This document shows, in pieces, positions 11,701-32,826 of a DNA stretch of 64,000 bases (position 1 is its first letter; every line of letters begins with the position of its first letter). Source of the stretch: Tubulanus polymorphus (Eukaryota > Animalia > Nemertea); contig NC_134026.1 in NCBI RefSeq assembly GCF_964204645.1, forward strand, positions 19,440,150 through 19,504,149, in the 5' to 3' direction. The translations under genes and the position numbers were made by a program. The notes below the pieces were generated by a model that worked only from the letters and a program-made list of their open reading frames with translations, did not search any database and had not been told where the DNA came from.

Positions 11701-14700
11701 AACACTGCAGGGACAAAATAGGGCTAAAACTTGAACTACCAGTTGAAGACGGTGTTTGACTATTCGAACCACACTCAATTTCTACGCTCTATTTTTCCAA
11801 AATCCTGTTTTAACTCTTTTACAGTAAACCTTGCTTTACTTGGACATGACCATCTGGGCTTTTGCCTAGCTCGGACAAAAACGGTATCAATTTTTTTATT
11901 TCCTAACATATTTTCCTATCCTCAACTCGGGCTTTGCATACCTTGCTCCAATTTTGTGCCAGTCTCAGTTAGTCAGGGTCAGCCCCAGTTCAGCAAGGTT
12001 TATTGTAATAAACAGTATTTCCTCGATATCTTAACAACCATTTCTAGAACGCAATGAAGCTGCAACACTTACTTGTCTTGAATGAGGTGAGTAATTGGTA
12101 GAAGCGCTGTCATAATCATTGCTAAGAGGCAGACAATCATGAAAGTCTGAAAGATTTAAGCATCGTGATGTGACTCTTGTTCATAGAATAGGAATTCAAT
12201 TTTGCAATACTCAAGTTTTTGAAATGCACAGGGATTGATCATGATATTTTCAACAAGGGCACTCCATTTCTAGATAATGCCTGGACATATAGCGGATTCA
12301 GTAAAAAAATCTATCCGACTTCATTTTGTAAGAAGACAGTTAAGGATCAAGCAGACATGCTTTCGAATATTCATTGAAGAATCATCTTTCAAGAAAACAT
12401 TTTACCTGATCGGTCTTTTACTGGTTTTGAACTGCCTAATTTCATTTTTGTGTTTTATCCTTATTAGATTGTTATCATAATTTATATTTTGTAAAGCACC
12501 TTAACCCTTTCGCTACGTGTGACGTTTTGGAAACGTCATATGGAGTGACACGTGCTGTGCGTATGACGTTGTAGAAACGTCATGCACCTATTGATTTATA
12601 ACTCGAACGCGTACACAGCAAACAGTATGGAAACGCATGTAAGACAAGATAGTTAGCTTTCTAAACAACAGATGGCGAAAATGCGTCAGTAGTTGGTGCT
12701 GTCAGCCTGTTGAGCACATGGTAATTTGCGCGGGATTGAGATGGCTGCTCGAAAGAAAGTTTTCAGTGCTAATCAAGTTTTAGGCAAGATTTACGCCGAC
12801 GACGACAGTGAAGATGACGATTTAGATGACGGGGGTGATTTCGGACTGGGCGGAGACGACTCTTGGGACGAACTGAAAAAAAAAATTTCTAACCCATCCT
12901 CACCCCCCCCCAACACGCCCCCCTACAGAAAAGGCTGTTGGTATGATTTTTTACTGATTTTCACTAAATAACATCATAATCTTCGATAAAAACGCGAAAA
13001 ATCGGGGTTAAAAACAATTTGAAAAAAATCGAATTTTTCGGAAAATACCTTACGTACGGGGCGGTGCAAGCGTGTACGTAGCGAAAGGGTTAATGAAAAC
13101 GATCTGAAAATCATGAATGTTTAAAAGAAAACCAGACGATACCTTTCTAGCACCAATTTTTCGTTCCAAAAAAGCAAACAAAAACAGCTGTATAATCAAC
13201 ACGGGCACGGATAATATTCCAAGCACCGATCCAATATCATTTGTTTCAAAGCCGAGTCCATCTAGAAAGTAAATAAATATTATCCAATAATTATCAATCA
13301 TTCCAATACTAATGAATATTATTATTGTATTTGAAATCTAAAACGTTGTCAAGCTGGTACTCAACGTGCTAAAAACTGCCACCAGAAAGCAACATCACAG
13401 AATAACTTCTACATGTGATAAATGTCCACCTCATGGCAAACAACTGATTGCTGCTGTGGAATTACATGTATCTGGTGATACTCAGTCTCAGGAGTCCAGT
13501 TACCCCATAAACCTTCGGGGGGAAGCGTAACGCGTGTATTCATTCTCTGGGATACAATAATGCAACGATGCTAGGTTTGACAATAGGAACTAACATTGTT
13601 AAGACTAACAAAAACAGGATAAATCAATTCTATGCTCAAAACGGCAAGATTTTTGCAGAAGCGAGAGACGTTTGAAATAGGAATCCAAACCTAAATGAGT
13701 AGCAGTGGATGCCCAGACCGGAAAAACTTCGTCAATACCAGTTACGGCAGCAGCCATTACAGCATATAGAATGACACTTATTCTAACTTCATGGCTCCTG
13801 AAATAAGTGTAAGTTATAATAGATTTATGTGCATGGTTGATGACGGGTGGTAGTAACCACCCAAAATATTTCTATCCTTCTTATAAACCATTTTAGTCAG
13901 TTCATAATCAAGTAATTTTTATGTTAAGGCAAGCCTATGTGGCCTCAAAGCTGGACGAACTGGAACAAGCACTGTTCATAATATGACAAGCACGTCATCT
14001 GAACCTGGCCTTAAGATGAATCAGAATTTGTAATTAAACATCAGTCGACATGGCTATTAAATCATGGCCACACAATAAATGTACATCTCGCATAGGTAGG
14101 AATAACCTGCTACAAAAAGAATGGTACATTTTACACTTCTGCCCTAAGTGAGCTTTACGAGATTTTCAGAAAACCATTTCAGAAATTTGATAAGTTTTAA
14201 TATTCAACTAGACCTACGTTAACTTGCCTATTTCAACACTGCTTTAAAACCACCGACATTACAATCACAAATCCAAATAAAATATGATTTATGGTCCTAC
14301 GTTATAACCGGAAGTACCAGAAGTACTGGTCGGAGCTATTACACTTACGTTATTGATAGATAAAGCGCACTTTTCTTGAATTTCGACATACGCGATTCTT
14401 CACATTCCGGCGAAATACCCGACGAGTTTCCCGCCATATTTTCTGTCTCATCTTTTGAACACAGTAAACACGTTCTCTTCACATCAGCTTGCATTAAAGG
14501 TTTCATGTTTTCCGACGATTCAGAGTATCGATGATTCTTCGCTCCATTAGTCAGGTTAGGAGCGCTGAATGACATCGAGCGGTCGTTTTTCAAATGCCAA
14601 GGATATTTGTAACGCATCTGATTAAGATCGTGAGTAGATCGGTTCGAGTTCTGTACATCCAGAAGAGCAGATGGAGACTTGCTATACGTCTCATAAAACA

Positions 14701-17700
14701 TGTTCAGCGTTTCGCAACTTTTCATATAGTCATTGATTTTTCTTTGAGACTGTAATATCTGACACTTCTCACAGACATAAAGGCCATTTTCTTTTTCGCC
14801 TGGTCTGAAATGAATAATTCATGATGAAAGGTAAGAGACCCGTTAAATGACAATGTAAGCCTTTCAGATCATCGATAAAGTGTGTACGTATAGTAGTGGT
14901 ATCAAATATCTAACCCCTCAATTTACTTACAAGTTCTCCCATTCTTTTTGAAGTTTTGGTATGCCCCGCTTGGCCGTGCAAAACCTTTCTACTTAATCAT
15001 CTTAGAACCCCAGACTCAGAATTGGGTTTTTACTGCATATGCTGAACTTAATGGACAGCAAATAAAGCAATTGGATGCATATGCTGAATGCTATACAAAG
15101 TACTTGTATCTGCATGAATATCCCAGCGAAGCAGGCATGGACCATCGAAATAATACCACACAAAAAATTCCAGATAATTCTGTATATGTAGGGTAGGAAC
15201 TCTTTGCCTGCCTTTTCAAGAAGTGCTGCCCTTTCGCCAGGATTTCAGTGTTCTTCGGGAATCAATATAATAAGAATATTTTCATCAAATTGGTTTTAAT
15301 TGCTTTTTCAGGTCGAATTAGTAGCATTTCTTCTTAGATTTACAGTCTGTTGCAATCAACAGAACAGAAGTGTATTTTGCAGGTTTTGAATAGATATGCT
15401 ACATCCTTGGAATTCCACGTATCTTTCAAACCCTGCAGGGCCTCTGCTTTCTATTCTTTGCGATTGTCTACTTACTAGCATAAGGCATGAAACTTACAGG
15501 TATTTTGCATGACTTCACAAGAAACAACTTTTAGAAACAAGTCAACCATACCAGTGTGGTTTTGGCAGACAAGTTTCAGTCGTACCAGTACGTGTTTGGC
15601 AGGCAACAACGAGTTAATGAAATGAAATGGGTAAATACACTGGCATGTATGATACTTACTTGTTTTTCTGAAGCGTTTCCTTCAGATGTATAACGGCGTG
15701 AATGATGGCAACGATATATACGAAAAACACGGGTAAACATGGCAGGATGAAAGGGAACTGAGAGAAGAAACCTCCTGCTGCAAACGTATTCGGGTATTTC
15801 TCGACGGGCTGGGCTAGAAATCCTGTAAAACATGAATACTAAAATATTTGTACGTTGTGCATGTAAAAGAGTTTGATAAAATTACAAACGAAAAGAAAAT
15901 ACAATGTTATTTTTTTGGTATTTCCGGAAATGATATGGTGTCCCTTATAAGTGATAGTTTTGTTGTACGGCATGTTATTAAATCTTAGGTTTCTCATTAT
16001 TGTGATAGAATCATAATCACAGGGGCTTATCACATTTGATAATGTATTTGTCCACTCTGAATGACCACTTTCCCTATAAAGTATATATAAAATTATTATT
16101 ATCTTTAAATCTATATGTATAGGAATGTGATAAGCCCCTGCAATCGCCAAGTAGAATTATACAATGTTCATAGTAACAGTTTTTAAATCGAAATTTAACG
16201 TACCAGATATCGCAGGTCCAATCATTTTGCCACATCCAAATCCGAGCACCATAATCGAAATATAAGCACCTTGATTGGAGTTGTCGGATGATTCGTAAAT
16301 AACAGCTTTGATCACCCCGATCACTCCTGAAAAACAAAGAAACAAAGTTTCCATGATGGACAATCTTAGCTGACATGCAAACCAAATTCATCCAGAACAA
16401 ACTTTCATCATCCTCGCTTGGCAGGGATTTGAACCAGACAGCATTGCGCAACTCTGTTGATGAAACCTGCCACAGTACCTCCAATGAGATGGTATGTTCA
16501 ATCACAAATAAATGGATAGCTATAAATTGAATATTACAGGCTTAAAAGAAACTTGATTTGTGATTGGCTAATCATGATATCAGGGCTAAGTGCGCAAATA
16601 GCTGCGCGTTAGGGCTAATCAGGCAAGGTTTCATGCCTTGGTTGAGTCTAAATGCCATAAGGTTCAAATCCATGGTGCCTTATGATGTCATCAAATGCCA
16701 CGACTAAGATATTTTTGGAACTAACCCATGTGGATACATGGATATAAAATAAAACAAACATCGCCTAACACTATATTTGATGAGATTTATGAACTGATAA
16801 TACTGTTACTTTCCTTGTCTTTGACTGATTTAAACCATCTTACTACTGTACAGAAAAGTACTGATTTTCAAGATCAAAGACTCTTATTTTGCTTTGACTT
16901 AAAATGTGGCTGAAGCAATAAAGTGTCTCCAATGATTGCGTGCATGGATTTCAAAAATGGAAAATAAAAATCACCATATGTTAATCCAAAGAAAAATCTG
17001 TTTATGAGAGCAATGATCATTGTCGGGCAAAATCCAAATGTGACTGTCGTCAATGTTTGTAGAGCGAGTGTGATGAGTATGATGGGACGTCGACCGACTC
17101 TGTCAGATAACCAACCCCAGAAATAACTGAAAATATTAACAAACAAGCTCAAAATGATATCGTCGCAAAGCTCAATCCGCTGGGTCCCACCTGATTCTGG
17201 GTTGTGTCATGGTGGATGGGTAGATCATCCTTGGCTTTAGAAGGCTGGGTAATGCTCATAGCATATTCTATACTATAATGATTTTTGTAAAAGGTCTTTG
17301 CAATGATTTCAAGTCGGTTAAAAATGTGTTGATCCTTAGACAGTATATCTATCATATTATCGATCATATTCTACTAAAACCTTGCACGTAATGAACTCTT
17401 ACCTGGCCATAACCCTTCCTCCGTACATCGCAAATAACAAAATTCCTACGTAGTAACCTTTATCTTCTTCTTTATGTCCAATGAACTATCATGAAAGTTA
17501 CATTTTATGTAGTACGCACATCGGGACTAGCGGCGAAACATTGTGGTAAAAGTTTTTGTAAGAGTCAAACCCTGATCTAACGTGCGAATAAACCGAAACA
17601 TTGTGGTAAAATATAACCCTGATCTAACGTGCGAATAATGTGATAAGTTGACTAGAAAATGTTTGTGTTAAGAGGATAATCTTTATGATTAGAATCAGTT

Positions 17701-18874
17701 TTTCCTGAAGCATAAGAATCAAAATCATACAAAGCGCTACTTACCAAAATGTAGGCAGGCAAAAAGGAGGACATGAAGCTTATTGACATTGCCGTTGCAA
17801 ACTGTAATAAATCATCGGTATTTCTTCTGGGGTCATTTGCTCAGAAGTTGGTTTAAGATAATCAGGATAGTTGACGTAGTGACAATTCAGATTTCATTGT
17901 TATTATCGTACTTATCCGCCAGTTAACCAACTTTTGAGCAACTGGTCCCTGGATTTCTTATGAACTGAGTCAATTTTCGTAAGTTCCAAATGATTTGGAT
18001 TAAGTGAAATTTAGCATTTAGTGACGTAGAAGTCACAACTGGATTTTTTCTGAAGAACTTGGAATAGCAGAGTTGAAGGAAAAAAATCATGGGGGATTCC
18101 AGACGTCCTTGAATCCCCCCGAGCATTCAGGACTTGGTTCAATAGCTGTTCGTAAAAGTTCGACTCAGGATTTAAAACACTGCATATGAACTAAGGCCTA
18201 TTTCAACTTATGAGAGTCAAACTTCACCAACTGAGTTATCGGTTATTCTACAGCGGGACAGCGGCTTTTTGGATTATAAAATCAATGAAAGATTTCTCAT
18301 GGAATTCTCATGGTGAATTCGAGAGGTACTTGTGAACTATGTTGAAAAAAACCTTCATGATTTCATGAATCTCTTGGTATATTTAGCGTGAATTTCTCGG
18401 TGATTAACAAATCAATTGGGACGGGGACGTTATTTGGTCAAGTTGAATGGTTTATCGGTATAAAATGGCAAGTGAGATTATGTCCTAATGGGTTGATACA
18501 ACTGTAAGGCACTGTTGATTTCATAAAAAGCAATTTTCATGAATTTAACGCGGGAAATTTTAAACTATCCAAAATATGGCTGTGAAATCGTGAATGTCTC
18601 CATTTTCTTCCGTGAAAATGTGAATTCATAGGCCTACCCCTATTAGTCCCACCTGATTCTACTATTAGACAGTCCGATATAAATTTTCGGTTGGCTTTCA
18701 GAAGGCTAGCAATTATTCTTTGAAAGGATATATCCATGAAAAAACGAGTAAATAAACTTGCTTAAAACTTACCATTGCCGACAACACTACACCTAGTACT
18801 TTCCAATCTAGGGGAGTAGCACCTTCCCTTGAAAGGCGGCAAAGCCCGATCAATTTGGCTTTGACAGACGCCAT
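8796..18874 (-). CDS. ZIFL (zinc-induced facilitator-like) MFS transporter, paralogue 1, 594 aa; exons 18874-18773, 17801-17745, 17485-17403, 17126-16975, 16326-16204, 15822-15660, 14804-14349, 13797-13691, 13261-13143, 12146-12073, 11498-11337, 8982-8796
   Basis: Twelve GT-AG exons sum to 1785 nt in frame. MFS motif A (WGWLSDRVGRRP) and the ZIFL signature GPAISGFLAQPVEKYP...FPFILPC. Exon sizes match paralogue 2. Confidence 0.9.
9126..9836. mobile_element. PIF/Harbinger-type MITE
   Basis: TAA on both flanks; imperfect TIR of about 25 bp (AGCCAGGCGTAGGTCGGC / GCCGACCTACGCCCGCCT); GTCGCA-rich subterminal repeats. Confidence 0.75.
9903..10583. mobile_element. PIF/Harbinger-type MITE
   Basis: TIR GGCTCGTTCACA...TGTGAACGAG; many subterminal TAGACCGGTCTA-like palindromes. 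Confidence 0.7.
12505..13089 (+). mobile_element. Internally deleted piggyBac transposon
   Basis: TTAA TSD; 14-bp TIR CCCTTTCGCTACGT; retains an acidic N-terminus-like ORF stub (MAARKKVFSANQVLGKIYADDDSEDDDLDD). Confidence 0.85.
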
Positions 18875-19985
18875 ATCAGCTGAATTTCATCTCAAATTTG
18901 GTGATTCTGAAAAGCAGAAGAAAAGCTTTGTACTCAAGGTTCAGGTATTGCTGACTGACAAACTGAGAAAATCTAATCTAAATGTTAAGGCTAGGCAGAT
19001 GCACAAAACCATTGAAAATCTTAGTGCATCACTGCCATTACTAGTGTAGCGGTTGTAGTGTAAACATATAAAATAGTAATTCAGGTAGTGACTGCTGTTG
19101 TCCATAGGTAGCGTAGTCGTAGTCACTCTGCTGTGCCGGGGCGCTCGCTACACGGGTCCGCCTGGGTCGACCGCACTCGGGTAGTGAATACGGCAAGGAG
19201 ACTCTTGTCTTCCCCAGGAAAGTAAATGGTATAAAATATGTAGAATCTGTTCCTCTATTGAAAAATGTCGCTAAAAAGGGCGCTTAAGCAGTACGCTCTC
19301 CTCCAAACAGTCGCCTCCCTACTCCACGTAGCCTTAATCTGTGTGGCCAATACAGACCCCCCAACCCGCTCTCCTCAGAGTAATCCGCTTTAGGGGCTTT
19401 CCTCGGACGAAACTCGCAGTGTTGATTACTCGGCGGATATGGCTACCCCCATTCCAAGTGCCCTCTCGCACATAGCTGTCCCCCGACATCTCAGGAGCTA
19501 ATTGCGACTCATGCCAGATCTGTCAAACTAGTCGTATGCATAAGTGTTGTCCGTAGCGACGGTCAATAGGGGAACGATCCTCACGTAGAACTAAATGGGT
19601 TCGATGCAGCAGGAAAACAAACAGAAATCCTCGTCCTTCCTTCCAGTGCCGGCGAATCAAATAAACGCAAGATTCGAAGTTTGATTGGAATGTAGTACGA
19701 ATTATTAAATATATATATTTTCTTATAATACAAAGTTCATCGTTCTTGATGCCAAGGGGACATCATGTCCACACGCAAAACACCTTGATTATTTACATTT
19801 CGATATATAAAAAGAATGTGCCCTTCATGGCTTGCAAAGCCTTGGTACAGTCAATGTACGGTAGCATACAAAGGAGACGACCGAACGTCGAATAGAAGCG
19901 GTGGCGCGGCGGACTCCGGTGTGTATCTAATATCACTTAGGTCTCAGTAAACGAGCGTCGAAGCTAATCAACGATTAAGATGTTA

Positions 19986-20329
19986 ACGACGGAGCGTCAA
20001 GTAGTTAACGACGAGCGTTGTCGTTAATCAACGATAAGAATTATACGACGGAGCGTCAAATAGTTAACGACGAGCGTTGTCGTTAATCAACGATATGAAT
20101 TATACGACGGAGCGTCAAATAGCTAACGACGAGCGTTGTCGTTAATCAACGATATGAATTATACGACGGAGCGTCAAATAGTTAACGACGAGCGTTGTCG
20201 TCAATCAACGATAAGAATTATACGACGGAGCGTCAAATAGTTAACGACGAGCGTTGTCGTTAATCAACGATAAGAATTATACGACGGAGCGTCAAATAGT
20301 TAACGACGAGCGTTGTCGTTAATCAACGA
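19986..20329. repeat. Tandem array of six 59-bp hairpin-containing units (3' LTR copy)
   Basis: Units start at 19986, 20045, 20104, 20163, 20222 and 20281; consensus stem TTAACGAC-N7-GTCGTTAA. Confidence 0.95.
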
Positions 20330-21449
20330 CTGCGCGCCAAATTCAAAATGTCGGTGACGCGAACTCAAAGAGTCGAAATTCAGAGGCGACGTCAAGAAGA
20401 TGAAACGACCGCGCGTTCGTTCGAAAAAGGAGTTACTGAATACAGGTGATTTTCATGGTCAGCAGAAAGGACATCTCGGAGTAAAATTACGGAAATAGCA
20501 CAGAAGATATAGGCCTACCATACTATTATTATTACTATTACTAATTACAGCGACGAGAGCGTTAAGTCGGCATCGTTAGAGGATTGAATTTAAACAGACG
20601 ATGAACTGACGGAGAATTTACAATATTTACAGGATTGTAAGGGACGAGTTTATCGGCAGCCCATGGCCGACGACTACACGACCCCCGGGTGCGTCGGCAC
20701 TCGGGACTCACTGAGGGCGGGATGTCAAAAACCACTGCAGCGATCCCGGGGTCAGACGACCCGGAGGCCCGTGTCTTAATTAGAGAGTAAAATTGTCTTC
20801 TTACATGATCTGTACGATTTACAGCGTCCGATTCGTAGAACGGTGAAGAGGCAGCAAGAAGAGTTTCTAATGTGGCTCTGCCAGAGCCAAGTTGCCAATG
20901 AGCGCGATTGCGCCAAATTTATAGTTTTAATGCGGTCAACGCACGCGGTGATTGGTCAAGCGTGACGAGCAGTGATACGATCCGCGGACAAAGTAGAGCA
21001 CGCGAAATCATTCGACCGTGACGAATGATAAACCCTAAATAAAGACTTCATACGCGAGAAATAGAATTAAGTTCTATAATATTTTAAGATTAACGCGAAA
21101 AATGACGACTATAAGACCGATACGGAGATATTTACTAAAAATAAACCGGAGCTAACCGCACCACCGCGAAAACGCTCACACGGAAGTGAGGCGGCGCCAG
21201 CGAACGGCGTCGTAAAAACGAGCGTAAACACGAGCAGGGCTGGAGAATTCTCCGGCGACGAGACGGAACCAAAACGGCCCAAAATCAAAGAAGTTGGGTC
21301 TCGAATATAAAAAGGAGAACACACACTAATAGGTAGGTGGGGGATAAAAGAATGGCCTGGACAGGCGCCGAAAAATCGCTAATGTCACCGCGATGTGGCG
21401 TGGCCAACACCGCGGGGGCCTGCCCAGGTCGTGAAATTGGAATCTGACA

Positions 21450-22605
21450 CACAGGGGCTCGTTACGATAGCTGGGGGTCCAAAATCAAAGATTTGACCCA
21501 GTATCCTAGGTACCACCTATAAAAAAAGAAAAGGGAGCTAACATTTTGACATACTAGAATTGACCTTCTCATTTCAATCGCTGATTACTTCGTAACCCAT
21601 CGACCGATTCGCTCGAAATTGGTTTCGTTTCATTCCTAAGAGGTTACTTTTTCGTTTGAGACCTTCCGCGACAAAATCGGATAAGAGACACCCGAGAAAT
21701 CACGACTCAAATCCGAAAAAACGAGTCAAAATAGCCAAAGCCGGAATTACTAGGACGTCTCGGAGTAGTCGATTTCCGACGAAAAACGATGATTTGACGC
21801 GGTTCCCGGACGTTAATCTTCACATATCATACATCGCTGGAAAGCTTATGAACTGACCTTATTGACAGACGCGTTTATTTGATAATCCGTTCCGATACCC
21901 GCGACTGGCGAGCTGATAATCCAGATTGATGCGATAAATACGATTTCCAAGTGTATTCCGGCCGCCATTAACTGCGTGACGTCATGAGAAATCCCAGCAT
22001 GCAACGCTAGATAATTGACATATTCAGTCGACCAATCACGTATCGCGAATTTATCAGTCCTCAGAGCCCGTGACGTCACACCCTCAATGGCGGTTCAGTG
22101 ACGCTTAAAGTGCGTATTTATCGGTTCGGTGCGTATTATCACCTCGCTTGTCGCCGGTTTCGGAACGGATTATCAAATAAACGCATTTTTCAATAAGGTC
22201 AGTTCATAAGCTTTCCAGCGATGTATGATATGTGAAGATTAACGTCCGGGAACCGCGTCAACTCATCGTTTTTCGTCGGAAATCGACTACTCCGAGACGT
22301 CCTAGTAATTCCGGCTTTGGCTATTTTGACCCGTTTTTTCGGATTTGAGTCGTGATTTCTCGGGTGTCTCTTATCCGATTTTGTCGCGGAAGGTCTCAAA
22401 CGAAAAAGTAACCTCTTAGGAATGAAACGAAACCAATTTCGAGCGAATCGGTCGATGGGTTACGAAGTAATCAGCGATTGAAATGAGAAGGTCAATTCTA
22501 GTATGTCAAAATGTTAGCTCCCTTTTCTTTTTTTATAGGTGGTACCTAGGATACTGGGTCAAATCTTTGATTTTGGACCCCCAGCTATCGTAACGAGCCC
22601 CTGTG
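21450..22605. mobile_element. Foldback non-autonomous DNA transposon (possibly P superfamily) nested in the 3' LTR
   Basis: 8-bp TSD ATCTGACA (21442-21449 and 22606-22613); the other LTR has a single copy of this site. Termini CACAGGGG...CCCCTGTG; near-perfect TIRs of about 415 bp. Confidence 0.93.
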
Positions 22606-22825
22606 ATCTGACAGGACTGCCAAAAATCTGTCAGATTGAAATTGAGCCGAAAAGATCCCGAAACATCGCCGCAGAACACCCAGCCCCGCCCCGGAATACG
22701 TACATCTAAAAAGAAACAATGAGAAAAGAACGGCTTAAGGCCATTCCGAAATACATAATATAATTTCACAAAAGACCGACATTTTGTGGTCAAACCCACC
22801 CCAGATATTGACAATTTTCGCCACA

Positions 22826-23160: not shown

Positions 23161-24436
23161 CTAATATACGTAAGGGATCTTGGCGGATTTGCAATCGATG
23201 GCGCACAGGACGCACGGACTGGGCCGACGGTCCAGGCCCCAGGTGGCGACGGGTCCGTGCGGAGTCGGATGTTGGTGTCGCAGGCCAAATACTGCTACGC
23301 GTCGCGGAGTGATCTCGTTCTCGGCGGGAGGCCATTCAATCCCATGGTGGGCTGCGAGGACCCGACACGCTGTGCAGGCGAAGGTTTCGGTAGGAGTCCC
23401 ACAGTATTGATACGCGGTACCCATCGCAGAGGGGTGATAGTGTAATGTCACATGCAGGCTACGGGTGGACGCCGAGCCAACCTCCTCGTCGCGTACAAGC
23501 ATGACGTGCTGGCCCGTGCCAACACCTACCAGTTCGTTCGTTCCTACGATAACTTCTGGCACACCAGCGTCAGCCAGGGCGAGCAGCCGCTGTTCCTCCT
23601 CTTCAATGCTCCTGGTGGGTATCACCGGCGTGATTTGGTTGTTCATCACCTGGAACTTGCCCGCTCCGGCCTCCGTCTCCGCGACGACTATCGGTGCAAC
23701 GACGGGAATGTCGGCCGACGAATTTGGAGAAGTCGCAGAAGGAGGGGCGTCCCCCTTGCTCAAAACGTGGTCAAAATCGGCCGGCATGTCCGGGCCGATA
23801 TCAGACGCGTGTGTCGTCTTCGGTGGCGACGCAATAGGAGTTAACACGGTCGGAGGCGTCGCGATCAGGGGCGGAGATGTTGATATCGGTTGCGGCGCAA
23901 TCTGGGGCGTCGCGATCGGTGTCGGTTTACCGGGTTCAAGCCGAGCTATCGCCTTCCTGGCTTCGAGGTCTCGACGAATCTCTAACCCTATACTGGTCTG
24001 TTGCGCCAGAAAGGCCGAGTCGAGCTGGCGGGCCTCCTCCGCGATGCGGTCGCTTGCAATCATGTTGGCCTTAACGCGTGCCCGATGGGCCCGGTCGGCC
24101 TCGCGTCGCGCCCGACGGTAGTCAGTGTGGCCGGGAGATTCTGAGATGGATAGAGCTGGATCTCGGTCCCACTCCTCAGTGCGCACGATTTTGCGCGGAG
24201 GTGAATTCTCGTCGCCCTCGGTGACGACCTCGTACCCCGGGTCGCGATTGGTCGTTTTTACATGATATTTTCCATGCTGCCGCGCGGAAAGTTTAGTACG
24301 TGAAATACGGCCGCAGTCGCGGCATTTGTAGCTGCGGCCTGCGACAGGCCGCCCCTCACACCCATCAGCATGCGCGTCGATCGCTTCTGAACGGAAATGC
24401 TTATAGCAAAAGCGACATTTAGTCTTGATGCTCGAC
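23161..24436 (-). CDS. Retrotransposon ORF3: zinc-finger/Arg-rich accessory protein, predicted 425 aa from a spliced mRNA
   Basis: Open frame of over 420 codons with CRFC-x11-H-x3-C and CRDC-x12-H-x3-H fingers, RRARREADRAHRARVK, a Pro/Thr linker and C-terminal CTAC...CVLC. A splice acceptor TTGTTATTACAG|G lies at 24437/24436. No AUG precedes the fingers (the track start is TTG). Confidence 0.8.
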
Positions 24437-24476
24437 CTGTAATAACAAAGTTGCAGATTTATATAAGAAAACCAGA

Positions 24477-27400
24477 TTAGACGGTCCAATCCCCGAACCT
24501 ATCGGGCAAGCGGGTTCTTCGATCAGATCTTCTACTAGAAAGGCCCTCAGAGGGCATCGCACCTAGGGGCGAATCAACGGCCACATAGGGCTTCAATCGA
24601 TCGAAATGTATATATTTGACATTGTGGTTTTCGAGATTCTCAACACCAAAGACCACGTCGTTGACAATGCGCGTGACTGAAAACGGACCAGTCCAAAGAC
24701 AGGACAATTTCTTGGTCTGTCGGGCCGAAATGGCGGGCGTGTAAACCCAGACTAAATCTCCGATATTATAAGTAGAGCCGCTCTGTCGCAAATCGTAACT
24801 TCTCTTATTTCGTTTCGTTCTTATTTCCAGGTTGCGTCGAGTCAATGCAAACGCGGTTTCAAGACGCTCTTTAACTTCGATCGCATACGATTTAGTTGGA
24901 AGAGGAGAGTGTTCCGCCGCGGATGTACCGGATACAATTTGAAGCGGTAAGTTAATTTCACGCCCGAACATCAAATAATTCGGAGTAAAACCAGTGCTAT
25001 CATGCACGGAAGCACGGTACGCCATAGTTAAGAAAGGTAATTGTTCGTCCCAGTCAGTCTGGTTAGAATTCACAGTCATAGCGAGGCCGTCTAAAAGAGT
25101 CCGATTGTACTTCTCGCACAACCCGTCGGATTGCGGGTGATAGGCCGTTGTACGGGTTTTCTGCATCTCGAGCAGTTCGCATATCTCTCTAACTAGTTTC
25201 GATTGGAAGTTCGTGCCTTGGTCACTATGGAATTGGCGGGCTACCCCATACCTCGAAATGAATTCTCTCACTAAGGTCGTTGCCACGGTAACAGCTGTCT
25301 GATTGGGTAGAGCATAGGCTTCTACCCACCGAGTGAAATAGTCGGTCACAACTAAGATAACTGTATTGCCAGAGTCAGTCTCGGGGAGAGGACCTAGAAT
25401 GTCGAGTGCGATTCGTTCGAGTGGTAGTCCCACTCTGTAATCTTTCATAGCGGCCCTTCTCTTCTTAGGGGTGGTCTTTCTTGACGCGCAGATATGACAC
25501 TGTTGACACCAGAGTTTAATGTCCTCATGGATTCCGTGCCAGAAATATTGACCATGGACGGCGGCGAGAGTCTTCTTTACTCCGAAATGTGCCGAAGTAC
25601 GGGAGTTATGGATGGAGTTAAAGACTTCTTTTCGATACTTTCTCGGGAGGAGTAGGAGCGTTGAATCGGGATGTCCAGCGCGTTCCTTGCTTATAAATAG
25701 TTTACCGTCAATCAGTTTTAATTGTGTCCATCGAGCCCAGTAGAACTTGGTCGAAAGCCCAAGGCTGGAGACATCTTGCCAGGCAGGCCTGTCGCCGGAC
25801 TTGAATCTTTCCACTATCCAAGATAGCTCCGAGTCAACTGCCTGTTCATTTATCAATTGCTGAGTCGTCCATTCGGTTGAACTTAACAGGGTGGTCCCAG
25901 ATCTAGGTATATTTCGTTGTTCGATGTTAATGTTTCTAATTTTGGTTCTGTCATTACAGGGAGAAATATCGCCCTGAAAGTTTGAAGAAGAACGGAGGCA
26001 GCTTGCACACTCTCGGCGTGAAAGACCATCAGCATTGGTGTGAAAACGACCGGGTCGATGTTGAATCTTGAATCGATACTCGGCCAAGGCGGTTATCCAT
26101 CTTGCGGTCTGTCCCTCTGGCTCCTTGAATGACATCAGCCACCGAAGTGACGCGTGGTCAGTCCTGAGGAGGAATTCTCTCCCAAGTAAGTAGTGTCGAA
26201 AATGTTTCACATAAGTTATAACTGCGAGCAACTCTCGCCTAGTGGTACAATAGTTTCTCTCCGGTTTGGAAAGGACACGGCTACCATACGCGATCACCCT
26301 TTCCTGTCCGTCCTGCGGCTGAGATAGCACTCCTCCGAGCCCCACTCCAGAAGCATCGCAATCTAGAATGAATGGTAAATCGGGGTCAGGATAGGCTAAG
26401 ACTGGTGGCGACATCAACATCTCTTTCAATCGGATGAACGCATCTTCGCAGTCTGATGTCCAGGTAAACTTCCTGTCTTTCTCGGTTAATTTATACATCG
26501 AGTGAGCGACGGAAGAGAAATCCGGGCAGAAATTTCGATAATACGACGCCAGGCCGAGGAATGATCGGACATCAGTTGGACACTTCGGTGTAGGCCAGTT
26601 CTTGATGGCTTCAATCTTAACAGGATCGCAGGCGACTCCCTCTTCTGAGACGATATGGCCTAGGAAAGTGACGCTTCTCTGGAAAAATTGACACTTCTTA
26701 GGTTTGAGCTTCAACCCGGAACGTCTGATTCGGTCAAAGACCGCCCGTAGATTCTGCAGAGTCTCGTCGAAGGATCTTCCGTATACGATGATATCGTCGA
26801 GATAAATTAAACAAATCTCATTTTGCAGCCCGCGCAAAACCTGCTCCATCAATCTTTCAAACGTGGCGCCCGCGTTGCATAGACCGAACGGCATACGCTT
26901 AAACTGATAAAGGCCATTTCGTACTACGAATGCTGTTTTCTCTTTAGCTTCTTCAGACAACTCCACCTGCCAATATCCTGAGGCTAAGTCCATCGTGCAA
27001 AAGTATTTCGATCCTGACAAAGAGCGAATCGAATCATCTATTCGGGGAAGCGGGTACGAGTCAAGCTGCGTACACGAGTTCAATGCCCGGAAATCTACGC
27101 AGAACCGTGTGGAACCATCTTTCTTCCCGACCAACACGATATTCGAGCACCAAGGGCTGGATGAAGGTTCTATCACGTCTCGGTTTAGCATGTCTTCCAC
27201 CATTTCGTCTGCTGTCTCTTGTTTCGATATGGGCATCCGCCTCGCCCGCTGTTTGATAGGGCGGCTCCCATTGGTGTCAATGTCGTGTGTCACGCCCTGG
27301 GCTAAACCCAAATCAGTGTCCGATTTCGAAAATATGTCAGAGTATTCTAGTATGAGCTGTCTCGCTTGTTCTCCCTCAGTAGGACTCAAATTCTCAAGGG

Positions 27401-28346
27401 TTCTCGCAATTAAGTCCACTAAATGATCAGGCTCTCTCTGGTCGGGTTGTAATTCTAGCTCGGTTATGCCGATCTGATTCATGCTTGAGCCGCCAACTCG
27501 GCTGATGGTGCTGAGATAGCCCAGGGTTGAACCCTTATGAATGGTTATCGTTTCCGGGGTCGGATTCATAACCCTTGCTGGTAGAAATTTCTTCTCTGTG
27601 TCTACAAGACTACGTGCGGTGAGAAATTGGTGTTTATGGGAAAGTCGCGATGACTCTATTATTGCCCATTTTCCAGTATGGTGTTGAACATCTACGAGTC
27701 CATCAACTATCTGTTCCGAAAATGGCTGAAGGATAACTTTCCGCCGGCTTCGTACTCGAGTGTTATTCTCGTCAAGATTACAGTGCTTTCCGTAAAACAG
27801 TTGCTCATCACCCAAAATCAAGCTCTTCCGTCCGGGAAATATCTTACAGTCGAAAAATTCTAGAAAGTCCATGCCGAGTATGACATCTTCTGATATATCA
27901 GCAATCACGAATTTCCAGGGAGTCGATTTATCGAAGATCTTAGCGTCGATCTCCATCTGACCTTTGACCTCAATACCTAAGCCATTGGCCGTACTCAATG
28001 CAACATCTGACATCTCTAATTTATCTTTCATCGCAGGACGAAGTCGATTATAAATCTTGCTATTTACAACGGAGACGCAAGCTCCCGTGTCAATCAAATA
28101 ATTTACATTGATTTCTCCTATTTTTCCGTGTATGATTATGCTCGTTGAATTTCTGCTCATTTGATAAATCTTTCTGATTTCTTTAATTTTAGGAGTTGGA
28201 GTATGATGATTTAATGAAGGAAATGAGAGTTCTTCTACTTGCGCGGCTGGCCGGACTCTCGAGGAGCCAACCGTCCCTCGTTTCCCTGATGCCTTGATCT
28301 GCGACATTCTCGAGAAATGTGGCCGGGCTCTCCGCAGGCGTAACAA
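24477..28346 (-). CDS. pol: Pol polyprotein (protease, RT, RNase H, integrase) in the -1 frame relative to gag
   Basis: LIDTGA protease, YLDD RT, CDAS RNase H, HHCC plus HSDQG integrase core, WTGPF module; no chromodomain. Confidence 0.97.
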   Translation of the reverse strand: MLRLRRARPHFSRMSQIKASGKRGTVGSSRVRPAAQVEELSFPSLNHHTPTPKIKEIRKIYQMSRNSTSIIIHGKIGEINVNYLIDTGACVSVVNSKIYNRLRPAMKDKLEMSDVALSTANGLGIEVKGQMEIDAKIFDKSTPWKFVIADISEDVILGMDFLEFFDCKIFPGRKSLILGDEQLFYGKHCNLDENNTRVRSRRKVILQPFSEQIVDGLVDVQHHTGKWAIIESSRLSHKHQFLTARSLVDTEKKFLPARVMNPTPETITIHKGSTLGYLSTISRVGGSSMNQIGITELELQPDQREPDHLVDLIARTLENLSPTEGEQARQLILEYSDIFSKSDTDLGLAQGVTHDIDTNGSRPIKQRARRMPISKQETADEMVEDMLNRDVIEPSSSPWCSNIVLVGKKDGSTRFCVDFRALNSCTQLDSYPLPRIDDSIRSLSGSKYFCTMDLASGYWQVELSEEAKEKTAFVVRNGLYQFKRMPFGLCNAGATFERLMEQVLRGLQNEICLIYLDDIIVYGRSFDETLQNLRAVFDRIRRSGLKLKPKKCQFFQRSVTFLGHIVSEEGVACDPVKIEAIKNWPTPKCPTDVRSFLGLASYYRNFCPDFSSVAHSMYKLTEKDRKFTWTSDCEDAFIRLKEMLMSPPVLAYPDPDLPFILDCDASGVGLGGVLSQPQDGQERVIAYGSRVLSKPERNYCTTRRELLAVITYVKHFRHYLLGREFLLRTDHASLRWLMSFKEPEGQTARWITALAEYRFKIQHRPGRFHTNADGLSRRECASCLRSSSNFQGDISPCNDRTKIRNINIEQRNIPRSGTTLLSSTEWTTQQLINEQAVDSELSWIVERFKSGDRPAWQDVSSLGLSTKFYWARWTQLKLIDGKLFISKERAGHPDSTLLLLPRKYRKEVFNSIHNSRTSAHFGVKKTLAAVHGQYFWHGIHEDIKLWCQQCHICASRKTTPKKRRAAMKDYRVGLPLERIALDILGPLPETDSGNTVILVVTDYFTRWVEAYALPNQTAVTVATTLVREFISRYGVARQFHSDQGTNFQSKLVREICELLEMQKTRTTAYHPQSDGLCEKYNRTLLDGLAMTVNSNQTDWDEQLPFLTMAYRASVHDSTGFTPNYLMFGREINLPLQIVSGTSAAEHSPLPTKSYAIEVKERLETAFALTRRNLEIRTKRNKRSYDLRQSGSTYNIGDLVWVYTPAISARQTKKLSCLWTGPFSVTRIVNDVVFGVENLENHNVKYIHFDRLKPYVAVDSPLGAMPSEGLSSRRSDRRTRLPDRFGDWTV

Positions 28347-29353
28347 ACGATGCGATTAGGGAGACGCCTACCGGCATCCGCAGGGGGGCGTTGCTGAGTC
28401 AACACTTGCTTCACCATTGAGGTTAGTTGAGCGACTTGTTCTTTTAACCCTTCAATTTCTCCACGGGGTTCCGATTTAACCTGATTCACGAAGCCATGCG
28501 AGTTTCTCTCCCGAACATCTTCTAGTTTCTCGAATGCCTCGAGTTCTACCGCTAATTTCACGACCTCATCTAATGACGTACTATGACTCTGATGAAGGCG
28601 CATTCTCAAATCTCTATCATCCAAAGCATCGATAAAATGGTTTCGTGTTAATCGGTCTCGTTGAGTCGGAGTTAAATCAGGGTAAGCCTTGGTTGCCAAG
28701 GTGATTAATACCTGCGAGAGCTCTCTCAGGCCTTCATTTCGTTTACGACGTCTGTTTCTTATTTCAGCCAAAAATAGTTCAGCCTGATGACCATGTCCAA
28801 AGCGATTGTCGAGCACTCTGACCAGTTGCTGAAAATCTCGCCTCTCCTCGTCGACGAGTGTACATACTAGTTGTCGGGCTGGACCACGAAGATGAGCAAA
28901 CAGGATATCGGCTTTAAGACGTCCGTTCCAGCCATTAATTCGGGCTACAGTCGCGAAAACTTGGAGATAATCAGGCCATGAGCCGTCTCCGGAAAACGTC
29001 TCGGGTCTGATATTATATAAATTATGAACAGTCGAGCTATAGCCGGCGGTTGCTGGGCCGATCGGTGCTGTCTCACGCTCAAAGGGCCTCGGTCGGTCGA
29101 TTTCATCATTGAAAGGAAGGTCAGTGATGTCGTCCCTCGATTCTGTCATCGTACGAGTCTCATCACTGGTAAGTCGGCTTAATGACCCGTCTTGAGAACC
29201 GTCGCCGGAGGCTGATTGAGTAACCTCGCGATCTCTATTAAGGTCAAGGTCTTGATCAAATCGTACATGTCGTTCATCTCCCTGACTATGGGATCTGCTC
29301 TTTGCCTTGCCTCGGGTACGTGAGCGACCTCTCGTCATGTCATTATTTTCCAT
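28235..29353 (-). CDS. gag: Gag, 372 aa
   Basis: PETFSGDGSW and LRGPA capsid-like motifs; CCHC knuckle CYACGEPGHISREC. Confidence 0.95.
   Translation of the reverse strand: MENNDMTRGRSRTRGKAKSRSHSQGDERHVRFDQDLDLNRDREVTQSASGDGSQDGSLSRLTSDETRTMTESRDDITDLPFNDEIDRPRPFERETAPIGPATAGYSSTVHNLYNIRPETFSGDGSWPDYLQVFATVARINGWNGRLKADILFAHLRGPARQLVCTLVDEERRDFQQLVRVLDNRFGHGHQAELFLAEIRNRRRKRNEGLRELSQVLITLATKAYPDLTPTQRDRLTRNHFIDALDDRDLRMRLHQSHSTSLDEVVKLAVELEAFEKLEDVRERNSHGFVNQVKSEPRGEIEGLKEQVAQLTSMVKQVLTQQRPPADAGRRLPNRIVCYACGEPGHISRECRRSRHQGNEGRLAPRESGQPRK
28244..28286 (-). promoter_or_regulatory. Programmed -1 ribosomal frameshift signal
   Basis: G GGA AAC heptamer in gag phase (28286-28280), a 6-nt spacer, then stem CGGTTGGC/GCCAGCCG. 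Confidence 0.85.
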
Positions 29354-29562
29354 TTTTACTTATAGCTGAATTAGAAGACGAACGATTAGAATGACGCCGC
29401 GCAAGAAGGTTGAAAGGAAAAACCAATTTAAATATATATGATAAGCTGATCACTGGAAGAAGGATTTCTGCTGCATCGGAAAAATAAACTAGCCCTAACC
29501 CGTCACTCGTCAAGTCAAACGAAAATTAATACTTTCAATAAGGGAAGTATTTTGATAAATAG

Positions 29563-29580
29563 ATCCCACCGCTGCCACCA
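29563..29580 (-). other. Primer binding site for tRNA-Leu
   Basis: TGGTGGCAGCGGTGGGAT is complementary to the metazoan tRNA-Leu(AAG/TAG) 3' end ATCCCACCGCTGCCA+CCA; it lies 4 nt from the 5' LTR. Confidence 0.9.
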
Positions 29581-30525
29581 TTTTTGTAGCGGTTGTAGTG
29601 TAAACATATAAAATAGTAATTCAGGTAGTGACTGCTGTTGTCCATAGGTAGCGTAGTCGTAGTCACTCTGCTGTGCCGGGGCGCTCGCTACACGGGTCCG
29701 CCTGGGTCGACCGCACTCGGGTAGTGAATACGGCAAGGAGACTCTTGTCTTCCCCAGGAAAGTAAATGGTATAAAATATGTAGAATCTGTTCCTCTATTG
29801 AAAAATGTCGCTAAAAAGGGCGCTTAAGCAGTACGCTCTCCTCCAAACAGTCGCCTCCCTACTCCACGTAGCCTTAATCTGTGTGGCCAATACAGACCCC
29901 CCAACCCGCTCTCCTCAGAGTAATCCGCTTTAGGGGCTTTCCTCGGACGAAACTCGCAGTGTTGATTACTCGGCGGATATGGCTACCCCCATTCCAAGTG
30001 CCCTCTCGCACATAGCTGTCCCCCGACATCTCAGGAGCTAATTGCGACTCATGCCAGATCTGTCAAACTAGTCGTATGCATAAGTGTTGTCCGTAGCGAC
30101 GGTCAATAGGGGAACGATCCTCACGTAGAACTAAATGGGTTCGATGCAGCAGGAAAACAAACAGAAATCCTCGTCCTTCCTTCCAGTGCCGGCGAATCAA
30201 ATAAACGCAAGATTCGAAGTTTGATTGGAATGTAGTACGAATTATTAAATATATATATTTTCTTATAATACAAAGTTCATCGTTCTTGATGCCAAGGGGA
30301 CATCATGTCCACACGCAAAACACCTTGATTATTTACATTTCGATATATAAAAAGAATGTGCCCTTCATGGCTTGCAAAGCCTTGGTACAGTCAATGTACG
30401 GTAGCATACAAAGGAGACGACCGAACGTCGAATAGAAGCGGTGGCGCGGCGGACTCCGGTGTGTATCTAATATCACTTAGGTCTCAGTAAACGAGCGTCG
30501 AAGCTAATCAACGATTAAGATGTTA

Positions 30526-30869
30526 ACGACGGAGCGTCAAGTAGTTAACGACGAGCGTTGTCGTTAATCAACGATAAGAATTATACGACGGAGCGTCAAA
30601 TAGTTAACGACGAGCGTTGTCGTTAATCAACGATATGAATTATACGACGGAGCGTCAAATAGCTAACGACGAGCGTTGTCGTTAATCAACGATATGAATT
30701 ATACGACGGAGCGTCAAATAGTTAACGACGAGCGTTGTCGTCAATCAACGATAAGAATTATACGACGGAGCGTCAAATAGTTAACGACGAGCGTTGTCGT
30801 TAATCAACGATAAGAATTATACGACGGAGCGTCAAATAGTTAACGACGAGCGTTGTCGTTAATCAACGA
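30526..30869. repeat. Tandem array of six 59-bp units (5' LTR copy)
   Basis: Same units and same variant positions as 19986-20329. Confidence 0.95.
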
Positions 30870-31338
30870 CTGCGCGCCAAATTCAAAATGTCGGTGACGC
30901 GAACTCAAAGAGTCGAAATTCAGAGGCGACGTCAAGAAGATGAAACGACCGCGCGTTCGTTCGAAAAAGGAGTTACTGAATACAGGTGATTTTCATGGTC
31001 AGCAGAAAGGACATCTCGGAGTAAAATTACGGAAATAGCACAGAAGATATAGGCCTACCATACTATTATTATTACTATTACTAATTACAGCGACGAGAGC
31101 GTTAAGTCGGCATCGTTAGAGGATTGAATTTAAACAGACGATGAACTGACGGAGAATTTACAATATTTACAGGATTGTAAGGGACGAGTTTATCGGCAGC
31201 CCATGGCCGACGACTACACGACCCCCGGGTGCGTCGGCACTCGGGACTCACTGAGGGCGGGATGTCAAAAACCACTGCAGCGATCCCGGGGTCAGACGAC
31301 CCGGAGGCCCGTGTCTTAATTAGAGAGTAAAATTGTCT

Positions 31339-31497
31339 TCTTACATGATCTGTACGATTTACAGCGTCCGATTCGTAGAACGGTGAAGAGGCAGCAAGAA
31401 GAGTTTCTAATGTGGCTCTGCCAGAGCCAAGTTGCCAATGAGCGCGATTGCGCCAAATTTATAGTTTTAATGCGGTCAACGCACGCGGTGATTGGTC
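31339..31497 (-). promoter_or_regulatory. Predicted LTR promoter, first exon and splice donor
   Basis: CCAAT (31495-31491), TATAAA (31463-31458), Inr-like TCATT about 25 nt downstream, donor AT|GTAAGA at 31345/31344. Confidence 0.65.
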
Positions 31498-32826
31498 AAG
31501 CGTGACGAGCAGTGATACGATCCGCGGACAAAGTAGAGCACGCGAAATCATTCGACCGTGACGAATGATAAACCCTAAATAAAGACTTCATACGCGAGAA
31601 ATAGAATTAAGTTCTATAATATTTTAAGATTAACGCGAAAAATGACGACTATAAGACCGATACGGAGATATTTACTAAAAATAAACCGGAGCTAACCGCA
31701 CCACCGCGAAAACGCTCACACGGAAGTGAGGCGGCGCCAGCGAACGGCGTCGTAAAAACGAGCGTAAACACGAGCAGGGCTGGAGAATTCTCCGGCGACG
31801 AGACGGAACCAAAACGGCCCAAAATCAAAGAAGTTGGGTCTCGAATATAAAAAGGAGAACACACACTAATAGGTAGGTGGGGGATAAAAGAATGGCCTGG
31901 ACAGGCGCCGAAAAATCGCTAATGTCACCGCGATGTGGCGTGGCCAACACCGCGGGGGCCTGCCCAGGTCGTGAAATTGGAATCTGACAGGACTGCCAAA
32001 AATCTGTCAGATTGAAATTGAGCCGAAAAGATCCCGAAACATCGCCGCAGAACACCCAGCCCCGCCCCGGAATACGTACATCTAAAAAGAAACAATGAGA
32101 AAAGAACGGCTTAAGGCCATTCCGAAATACATAATATAATTTCACAAAAGACCGACATTTTGTGGTCAAACCCACCCCAGATATTGACAATTTTCGCCAC
32201 ACTAGTCTTTTTCAGTATCTGCATTTTTCATTCATCTTTGCTTGAGAGGACGTTGGGTGGCCTAACACAAGTCAGTTTAGGTACGGCATACCTGATATAG
32301 GGCTTCAAAGGACCAGCAAAGCTAAACCAAAACATTGATTTTCAATTCATTTTACTCACTGTAGGCCTGTAAAAGGATTGCCAAAAAGTTCATTGAATGG
32401 GGTTGCATCATATGAGCATGAGGGGTTTTTACAAGTATTTTCTGAAATCTTAATAAAAAGACGAAAACGTGTTAAATTTTGCCAGGGGAAATGCTCTGGA
32501 GAGGGGTGTGACATTATATGTGGTAGTGAAGAAGTTATTACCGGTATTTAGTCTAATAGTAAACCGTAACATTAGGCCTAACTACAAATGATATTCAGAC
32601 TATATCGGTATGTGCTACCAAAACTGCCCGAGCTAGAGCTTAGACCACCTGCTTGCAGTCTGAAAGCTAGTTGTCGTTACGGGTTCCCCTACATCCTACA
32701 TCTGTTGTTTGTTTGAGGAACAACGGCTAATTAGGTACTAGACTAACCCACGTGCCGCCAGGCCAGGGGCAAGTTTTTAAATAGTGACATTCAGGCCTAC
32801 TTTTTATTTGAATTTGCATTGTAGTG

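Follow-up and report, generated by a model that had tools for sequence, protein, structure and literature searches.

Regulatory accessory genes are thought to be typical of complex retroviruses. The stretch of DNA analyzed here (64,000 nt of Tubulanus polymorphus; the window) contains a Gypsy element with a third open reading frame (ORF3) in the env position, which raises the question of what kind of protein is encoded there. A first-pass annotation had proposed a nucleic-acid-binding regulator, naming Rev-like, transactivator, and VANC-like functions as options. Since non-envelope ORF3s have been described in Gypsy elements (passages in PMC5408684 and PMC5718144), the kind of gene is already known. 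No description of a zinc-finger or TatD ORF3 in animal Gypsy elements came up in the literature covered, namely, main texts of freely accessible papers; the main text of PMC5408684 lacks the words zinc, C2H2, and finger, and the portions covered of PMC6238403, PMC8220671, PMC13524379, PMC12440569, PMC2774666, and PMC3383448 contain no zinc-finger ORF3.

Results

ORF3 is carried by a young Ty3/Gypsy element

The carrier of ORF3 is a Ty3/Gypsy LTR retrotransposon on the minus strand. Every feature defining this class was found: LTRs of the TG...CA type, a primer-binding site, a target-site duplication, gag, and pol ordered protease (PR), reverse transcriptase (RT), RNase H (RH), integrase (IN).

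19041..19044 (other copy 32202-32205), no strand: target-site duplication, 4 bp, CTAG
19045..22825, minus strand: 3′ LTR, with a second copy of the repeat array at 19951-20329
23161..24436, minus strand: ORF3 coding exon; predicted protein of 425 aa including the junction Met
24477..28355, minus strand: pol (protease, RT, RNase H, integrase), open frame of 1292 codons
28235..29353, minus strand: gag, one CCHC knuckle
29365..29381, minus strand: putative acceptor-like site 12 nt upstream of the gag ATG
29563..29580, minus strand: primer-binding site
29585..32201, minus strand: 5′ LTR, 2617 bp, TG...CA
31458..31463, minus strand: TATA-like box, candidate promoter

Over 2405 + 220 nt the two LTRs show no difference; the 3′ LTR was later interrupted by an insertion of 1156 bp. 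As the LTRs are identical and the CTAG duplication flanks the element, its insertion must have been very recent. The primer-binding site, which we take to be of the tRNA-Leu type, recurs as an 18-mer in three related loci (L008, L057, and L063), and the RT region is 61-68% identical to its top matches, which are unnamed proteins. The insert in the 3′ LTR (21450-22605; 493-nt inverted arms, 8-bp duplication) is a non-autonomous DNA transposon, presumably hAT-like, which arrived after the retrotransposon. An ATTAAA signal immediately precedes the TATA-like box (20923-20931 and 31463-31471); if it is used, R would be very short and U5 ∼1.85 kb long. Elsewhere in the window, two similar host gene copies lie ∼29-31 kb apart (about 8800-17800 and 39800-49000), with exon-sized repeats 73-95% identical; one frame in this duplicated region resembles, by eye, a major-facilitator transporter.

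ORF3 encodes a non-envelope protein with zinc-finger-like modules

From stop to stop, the ORF3 frame (24498-23161) spans 445 codons. When the region was shuffled 2000 times by mononucleotide, no shuffle gave an open frame of at least 400 codons, so the frame is too long to be due to chance. It differs from the pol frame and follows the pol stop. All features named in the first-pass annotation (C2HC and C2H2 fingers, Arg/Ala helix, PIATP-type linker, Cys/His-rich end) were present where it had placed them. Residue numbering starts at the predicted junction Met.

24358..24417, minus strand: finger 1, C2HC, C8-x2-C11-x11-H23-x3-C27
24262..24324, minus strand: finger 2, C2H2, basic, C39-x2-C42-x12-H55-x3-H59
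24151..24171, minus strand: WDxDPxL motif, at the same position in ORF3 of L008 and L062
23941..24135, minus strand: Arg/Ala-rich helix, 65 residues, pLDDT 64-90 by blocks of ten; predicted antiparallel homodimer
23464..23928, minus strand: Pro/Ser/Thr-rich low-complexity linker; in-frame indels tolerated among copies
23338..23442, minus strand: putative zinc module 1, H333-x-H335-P...C355-x2-C358-x7-GI
23176..23277, minus strand: putative zinc module 2, H388-x-H390-P...C409-x2-C412-x7-KI

Finger 2 had been called classical. Its ligand spacing, C-x2-C-x12-H-x3-H, is indeed that of PF00096, but its core has Ser and Ala where Phe and Leu are usual, and the Pfam score (15.8 bits) stays below the cut-off (25.2 bits). 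The best PDB matches of a three-row N-terminal profile were tandem C2H2 proteins such as ZFP568, PRDM9, and CTCF, known DNA binders; this match is generic because the PDB is rich in DNA-binding C2H2 proteins.

The helix begins YRRARREADRAHRARVK at residue 107 and was the only part that AlphaFold, run on the single sequence, predicted with confidence; single-sequence folds outside the helix were poor (pLDDT 42 and 37). Its predicted homodimer scored 0.43, compared with 0.05 for the best of three controls, with contacts agreeing by at least 97% between runs and pLDDT of at least 85; of 29 eukaryotic solved pairs, 17 attain the mark used to read such scores, as against none of 30 single chains, and the result may reflect memorization by the predictor. 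In this model, alanines lie at the interface, and six of the eight basic residues in 108-123 are outside the named interface residues.

The PIATP-type linker (residues about 171-325) leads to the Cys/His-rich end (residues 333-425), which had been taken for a single domain. Its presence stands; however, the last 100 residues contain two HxHP...CxxC-x7-[GK]I units, whose mutual alignment has a P of about 0.02-0.045, and two such HxH...CxxC motifs arose in 0 of 20,000 shuffles (the pattern was chosen post hoc). The region thus appears better read as two tandem HxH...CxxC modules, probably structural zinc modules of no described family. In the ESM Atlas, whole ORF3 was nearest to C2H2-type clusters (0.79-0.83) and its end to deaminase-like clusters (0.83-0.84), all below 0.9. 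A cytidine/dCMP deaminase was rejected: the motif is HxH, not HxE, hhalign gave a probability of 2.6% over 16 columns, and the HMM score was below that of shuffles. The likeness is limited to PCxxC and the following helix.

ORF3 is a non-envelope gene, as had been supposed. Neither a signal peptide nor a membrane anchor is evident (maximal 19-residue hydropathy 1.1; the N-terminus is a zinc finger), only one NxS/T site is present, and no homology to viral fusion proteins was found in Pfam, the PDB, or protein libraries.

ORF3 is under purifying selection

Variants were taken from the best 40 of 177 and the best 40 of 162 rows from read mapping, which yielded 44 distinct sites in ORF3; the variant-bearing runs are unphased and all from one study. 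Among these listed variants, 26 of 44 were synonymous compared with 25-31% expected (P 2e-6 to 1e-4), giving a rough dN/dS of 0.23-0.31. ORF3 is therefore under purifying selection, and the neutral evolution that would have spoken against the first-pass annotation was not seen. Synonymous and nonsynonymous listed variants were distributed 6:2 in the fingers, 5:0 in the C-terminal domain, 8:9 in the linker, and 1:4 in the helix, the least constrained part; no listed variant changed a Cys/His ligand. Three insertions (6, 15, and 15 nt) and a net 9-nt deletion preserve the frame; the deletion falls near C409, in an ambiguously aligned stretch. The frame is broken by two 1-nt deletions, one of them in the main contig of runs X2/X3. 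Together, these data support ORF3 as a real, conserved accessory gene.

A contig in runs X2/X3 skips 3391 nt of pol (window 24616-28008), and read depth in X1 and X2 is ∼2-fold higher outside pol; there seems to be a pol-deleted derivative retaining gag and ORF3. Divergence is 8-17% between haplotypes of ORF3 and <1% between listed pol contigs.

ORF3 is likely expressed from a spliced message

As the first in-frame Met of ORF3 (residue 126) follows both fingers, these would be lost without a splice.

31339..31346, minus strand: candidate splice donor AT/GTAAGA; the intron would begin at 31344
24437..24453, minus strand: splice-acceptor-like tract ending TACAG, 9/14 pyrimidines; first exon base 24436

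The donor lies ∼120 nt past the TATA-like box, with no other ATG in between. Its AT would supply two letters of the ORF3 start codon, and the unspliced reading is ATG-TAA. Of 356 GT sites, none has a higher simple consensus count (the top is shared), and past the TATA box this donor is the first to reach that count; a second AT/GT site at 30336, which has upstream ATGs, could serve likewise. The acceptor-like tract lies 40 nt past the pol stop (AG/G at 24436), and the predicted join, 31344 to 24436, would read ATG-TCG-AGC in the ORF3 frame. From these signals, ORF3 is likely made from a spliced message with a junction-made ATG. The acceptor passes the pyrimidine rule at 8 or 9 of 14 and fails the strictest version (10/14); the rule alone is weak, as 29 sites in 8.6 kb pass at nine pyrimidines. 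Drosophila gypsy env is described as gaining its start codon through splicing (methods passage of PMC8096092). This errantiviral gene resembles ORF3 in position, and its junction-made ATG (ATG/T donor, AG/G acceptor) parallels the one predicted for ORF3; unlike it, ORF3 lacks a signal peptide, furin site, and membrane anchor, and its predicted donor lies in the LTR, not at the start of gag.

A Gag-ORF3 fusion by splicing was rejected, as gag has no strong phase-2 donor (best, four of seven consensus letters). The leader of 2083 nt contains 21 ATGs. The acceptor-like site at 29365, along with the start-stop ATG-TAA at the donor (31344-31346), suggests that Gag-Pol may come from a leader-spliced RNA separate from the genomic RNA. 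The runs X1-X3 behave like DNA, with even cover of pol and LTR ends running into varied flanks.

Finger-bearing ORF3s recur among related Gypsy loci

Direct searches for ORF3 homologues came back blank: a word search among 7994 candidates of similar length, a phmmer run against 1.84 billion representatives, and scans of metagenome, genome, and viral contigs. Against PDB sequences the best E was 0.14, Foldseek gave no match, and PHROGs, phage tblastn, and a two-repeat profile gave nothing meaningful. A profile of the three-row N-terminal alignment returned nine matches, namely, the ORF of L062 itself and generic C2H2 proteins. Neither a described Gypsy ORF nor a host gene or exon, either of which would have spoken against the first-pass annotation, was matched in protein or profile searches.

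Because protein libraries yielded no ORF3 homologue, relatives were gathered through integrase. This yielded 126 loci, 68 of them with at least 900 nt beyond integrase. A sense ORF of at least 100 codons with a zinc-finger pattern was found within 2 kb after integrase in 20/68 loci, compared with 4/68 on the other strand; this pattern is permissive, and the matches in L073 and L099 could be fortuitous. Most of these ORF3s place a finger pair close to the N-terminus, with S/T/P-rich sequence behind it. An acceptor-like site at most 16 nt before an upstream Met accompanies 16 of the 20 (10 by the strictest rule), and such sites precede 20/51 upstream Mets of this kind versus 16/133 internal Mets (P 7e-5).

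A quick integrase tree was built from 71 rows, without L026 and further matches that were short. In it, every finger-bearing ORF3 fell within one 53-row group of moderate support (87), scattered within it, and none among the 18 rows outside. The nearest rows to the window element were P0020 and P0014. L008 and L062 have the order C2HC + C2H2 and the WDxxP motif in common with the window ORF3. With a 13-row finger profile, the window ORF3 was the best domain among 688 window frames, but at an E of 0.033; it was not among the top 12 rows with an L008+L062 profile, and a motif-only profile ranked it first at an E of 1.2. The post hoc pattern WDx[DE]Px[LIVM] arose in 8 of 20,000 shuffles. Sequence homology of the window ORF3 to its relatives is thus weak; a common architecture with L008 and L062 is shown, and descent from one ancestor is only suggested.

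Other ORF3s combine or replace the fingers. In four loci (L013:9251-11866, L014:2827-6129, L015:9097-11439, and L072:7372-9000) a TatD DNase domain (E 1e-33 to 2.5e-41) accompanies a zinc-finger-like motif, and these loci form one supported integrase-tree branch with L088, which has a GDSL domain. L098 (1020-1859), sister of three finger-bearing elements, has an ORF3 without fingers, consisting of Lys/Glu repeats, a coiled-coil-like part, and SPHRR repeats. In L008 (1060-2124) the pol frame continues without a stop into ORF3, and in L062 (1257-1997) the pol tail and ORF3 share a frame; each has kept its own acceptor and Met, and both a fusion and a free ORF3 protein could be made. Interchangeable non-envelope ORF3s are likewise seen in the Gypsy-like elements Juno and Vesta of bdelloid rotifers, with L088 having GDSL/SGNH in common with them; according to the passages covered in PMC5408684, theirs differ in being DEDDy, GDSL, coiled-coil, or membrane proteins. 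Many prokaryote-labelled genome contigs (within L003-L046) carry Gypsy integrases, the simplest interpretation being that host DNA was placed in metagenome bins.

A repeat array in the LTR is a candidate target

30491..30869, minus strand: array, 6.4 copies of a 59-nt unit; candidate ORF3 target

Each unit contains two inverted repeats, ACGAC-N7-GTCGT and GACG-N3-CGTC. As DNA, the array is a series of palindromes with a CpG observed/expected ratio of 3.15 (0.87-0.88 in flanking DNA); ACGAC-N7-GTCGT occurs 12 times in the element and nowhere outside. The array of the 5′ LTR falls within the predicted intron. As RNA, each unit folds into two hairpins; on the sense strand this fold is preserved in three unit variants, with G-U pairing possible at both changed stem positions. 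Two such changes are expected one time in four by chance, and the hairpins are no stabler than shuffles (z -1.0 to -1.5, sense strand). Tandem repeats also follow ORF3 in all eight relatives with >600 nt, except L013 (no control set).

Discussion

It is reasonable to infer from its fingers, its basic helix, and the dimer prediction that ORF3 is a nucleic-acid-binding regulator. We consider it probable that it serves the element as a functional self-regulator, at the level of either RNA or DNA, although the data cannot separate the Rev-like, transactivator, and VANC-like options. Our working explanation, held with less than even confidence, is by analogy a CERV- or Rev-like regulator that would bind the hairpin array of the intron-retaining leader and help unspliced RNA both to evade splicing and to be exported. 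It is favored because of the splice logic, the basic dimer helix, the intronic array, and the precedent of CERV from Cer1, a Ty3/Gypsy element of C. elegans. CERV is a spliced, Cys-containing, predicted-multimeric protein encoded in the interval that separates pol from the 3′ LTR and required for genomic RNA export, according to the passages covered in PMC10309623. As there described, it resembles ORF3 in occupying the env slot without being envelope-like, in having no outside homologues, in a Cys-based putative finger, and in helical parts; multimerization and spliced expression are predicted for ORF3 as well. CERV differs in its size (517 aa), its five exons, N-terminal exons shared with the gag frame, a C4-type loop, a ring-forming domain, and a G-protein-like domain (H, M, and G domains; PMC10309623). 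By that description, ORF3 is set apart by C2HC and C2H2 fingers, the predicted coiled-coil dimer, and tandem HxH...CxxC modules; library searches with ORF3 gave no match to CERV.

In an RNA-level switch, transcription would start near 31435, and by default the RNA would be spliced between the first strong donor, at 31344, and the 24436 acceptor, making the ATG of the 425-aa protein. ORF3 would pair through the antiparallel Ala-rich coiled coil; the interface would exclude most arginines, and each end would bear a finger pair. The dimer would then bind the 59-nt hairpin array, kept only in intron-retaining RNA, and host factors may be recruited by the acidic WDxDP motif or by the pair of zinc modules at the C-terminus, so that genomic RNA accumulates. 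Ser-Pro-Arg repeats in the relatives L098 and L063 count for this explanation. Against it count the acceptor failing the strictest rule, the ordinary stability of the hairpins and the chance expectation for their G-U changes, the weak constraint on the helix, the 1-nt deletion in one X2/X3 haplotype, the differences from CERV in finger type and N-terminal exons, the PDB matches to DNA-binding tandem C2H2 proteins, and the failure to identify a convincing nuclear export signal in ORF3.

The matches to DNA-binding tandem C2H2 proteins would suit a DNA-level self-regulator, a close rival in which we have only slightly less confidence: a dimer binding the CpG-rich palindromic LTR array would activate transcription or block silencing, like a foamy-virus-type transactivator or VANC. 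What favors such an activator or anti-silencer is the transcription-factor-like layout (fingers, disordered S/T/P region, and coiled coil), which recurs in L010, L016, L059, L066, and L120, together with the CpG palindromes, confined as ACGAC-N7-GTCGT to the element. The repeats after ORF3 in seven of eight relatives fit as well. However, the face of finger 1 is acidic, the core of finger 2 is degenerate, and the spacer between the two is 11 residues, whereas the canonical spacer between tandem C2H2 fingers is 7; the array, moreover, is downstream of the predicted start, not in U3. VANC works via a short tandem motif present at high copy in its element (passages in PMC6719617), and VANC21/VANC6 of VANDAL transposons are, like ORF3, element-encoded accessory proteins beside such a motif. 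Yet, these are plant DNA transposons, and Pfam scans revealed no VANC homology and protein searches no plant transposon match.

Regulation need not involve sequence-specific nucleic-acid binding if ORF3 were a protein adaptor or decoy neutralizing host restriction (piRNA, chromatin, or ubiquitin machinery). Ubiquitin-binding or TRAF-type fingers share the C2HC spacing of finger 1, the L062 finger pair scores 25.7 bits against zf-TRAF (cut-off 27), the short conserved WDxxP motif lies within a disordered region, and ORF3 types turn over fast among sister lineages. Still, finger 1 matches no solved ubiquitin-binding finger in the PDB, the Asp after its His is absent in L008 and L062, and the basic finger 2 and outward arginines fit nucleic acid, which makes an adaptor unlikely. 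Less likely again is a finger module steering the integrase or reverse-transcription complex to chromatin as an integration or particle accessory. The joined frames of L008 and L062 and the finger fused to the TatD domain in four loci point that way; the window ORF3, however, is out of the pol frame and after its stop, L008 and L062 retain their own acceptor and Met, and the pol-deleted derivative appears to retain ORF3. That ORF3 is a neutral passenger, either a recently captured host exon or a chance open frame, is largely refuted and very improbable. The blank in every protein library searched, a GC3 of 0.63 (0.49 in pol), and a frameshifted haplotype would agree with it, but the synonymous excess, the frame-keeping indels, the lack of a host gene match, and the same layout in 20/68 related loci do not.

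Among animal Gypsy elements, CERV is the one tested example of such a regulator found in the literature covered. The copy in the window suits a clean test, as it offers one predicted junction, one candidate target array, and one predicted dimer. More speculatively, and with limited credence on our part, many Gypsy elements of aquatic invertebrates may be "complex" retroelements, whose spliced third gene would combine a tandem-finger self-recognition module with swappable effectors (the duplicated HxH...CxxC zinc domain here, TatD or GDSL elsewhere), bind a family-specific LTR array, and act as a Rev/Tat-like or anti-silencing switch. The presence of a zinc-finger ORF3 in nearly a third of the sampled relatives suggests that regulators of this kind are common and have been overlooked, in part because the gene can lack an ATG of its own and so escapes gene callers.
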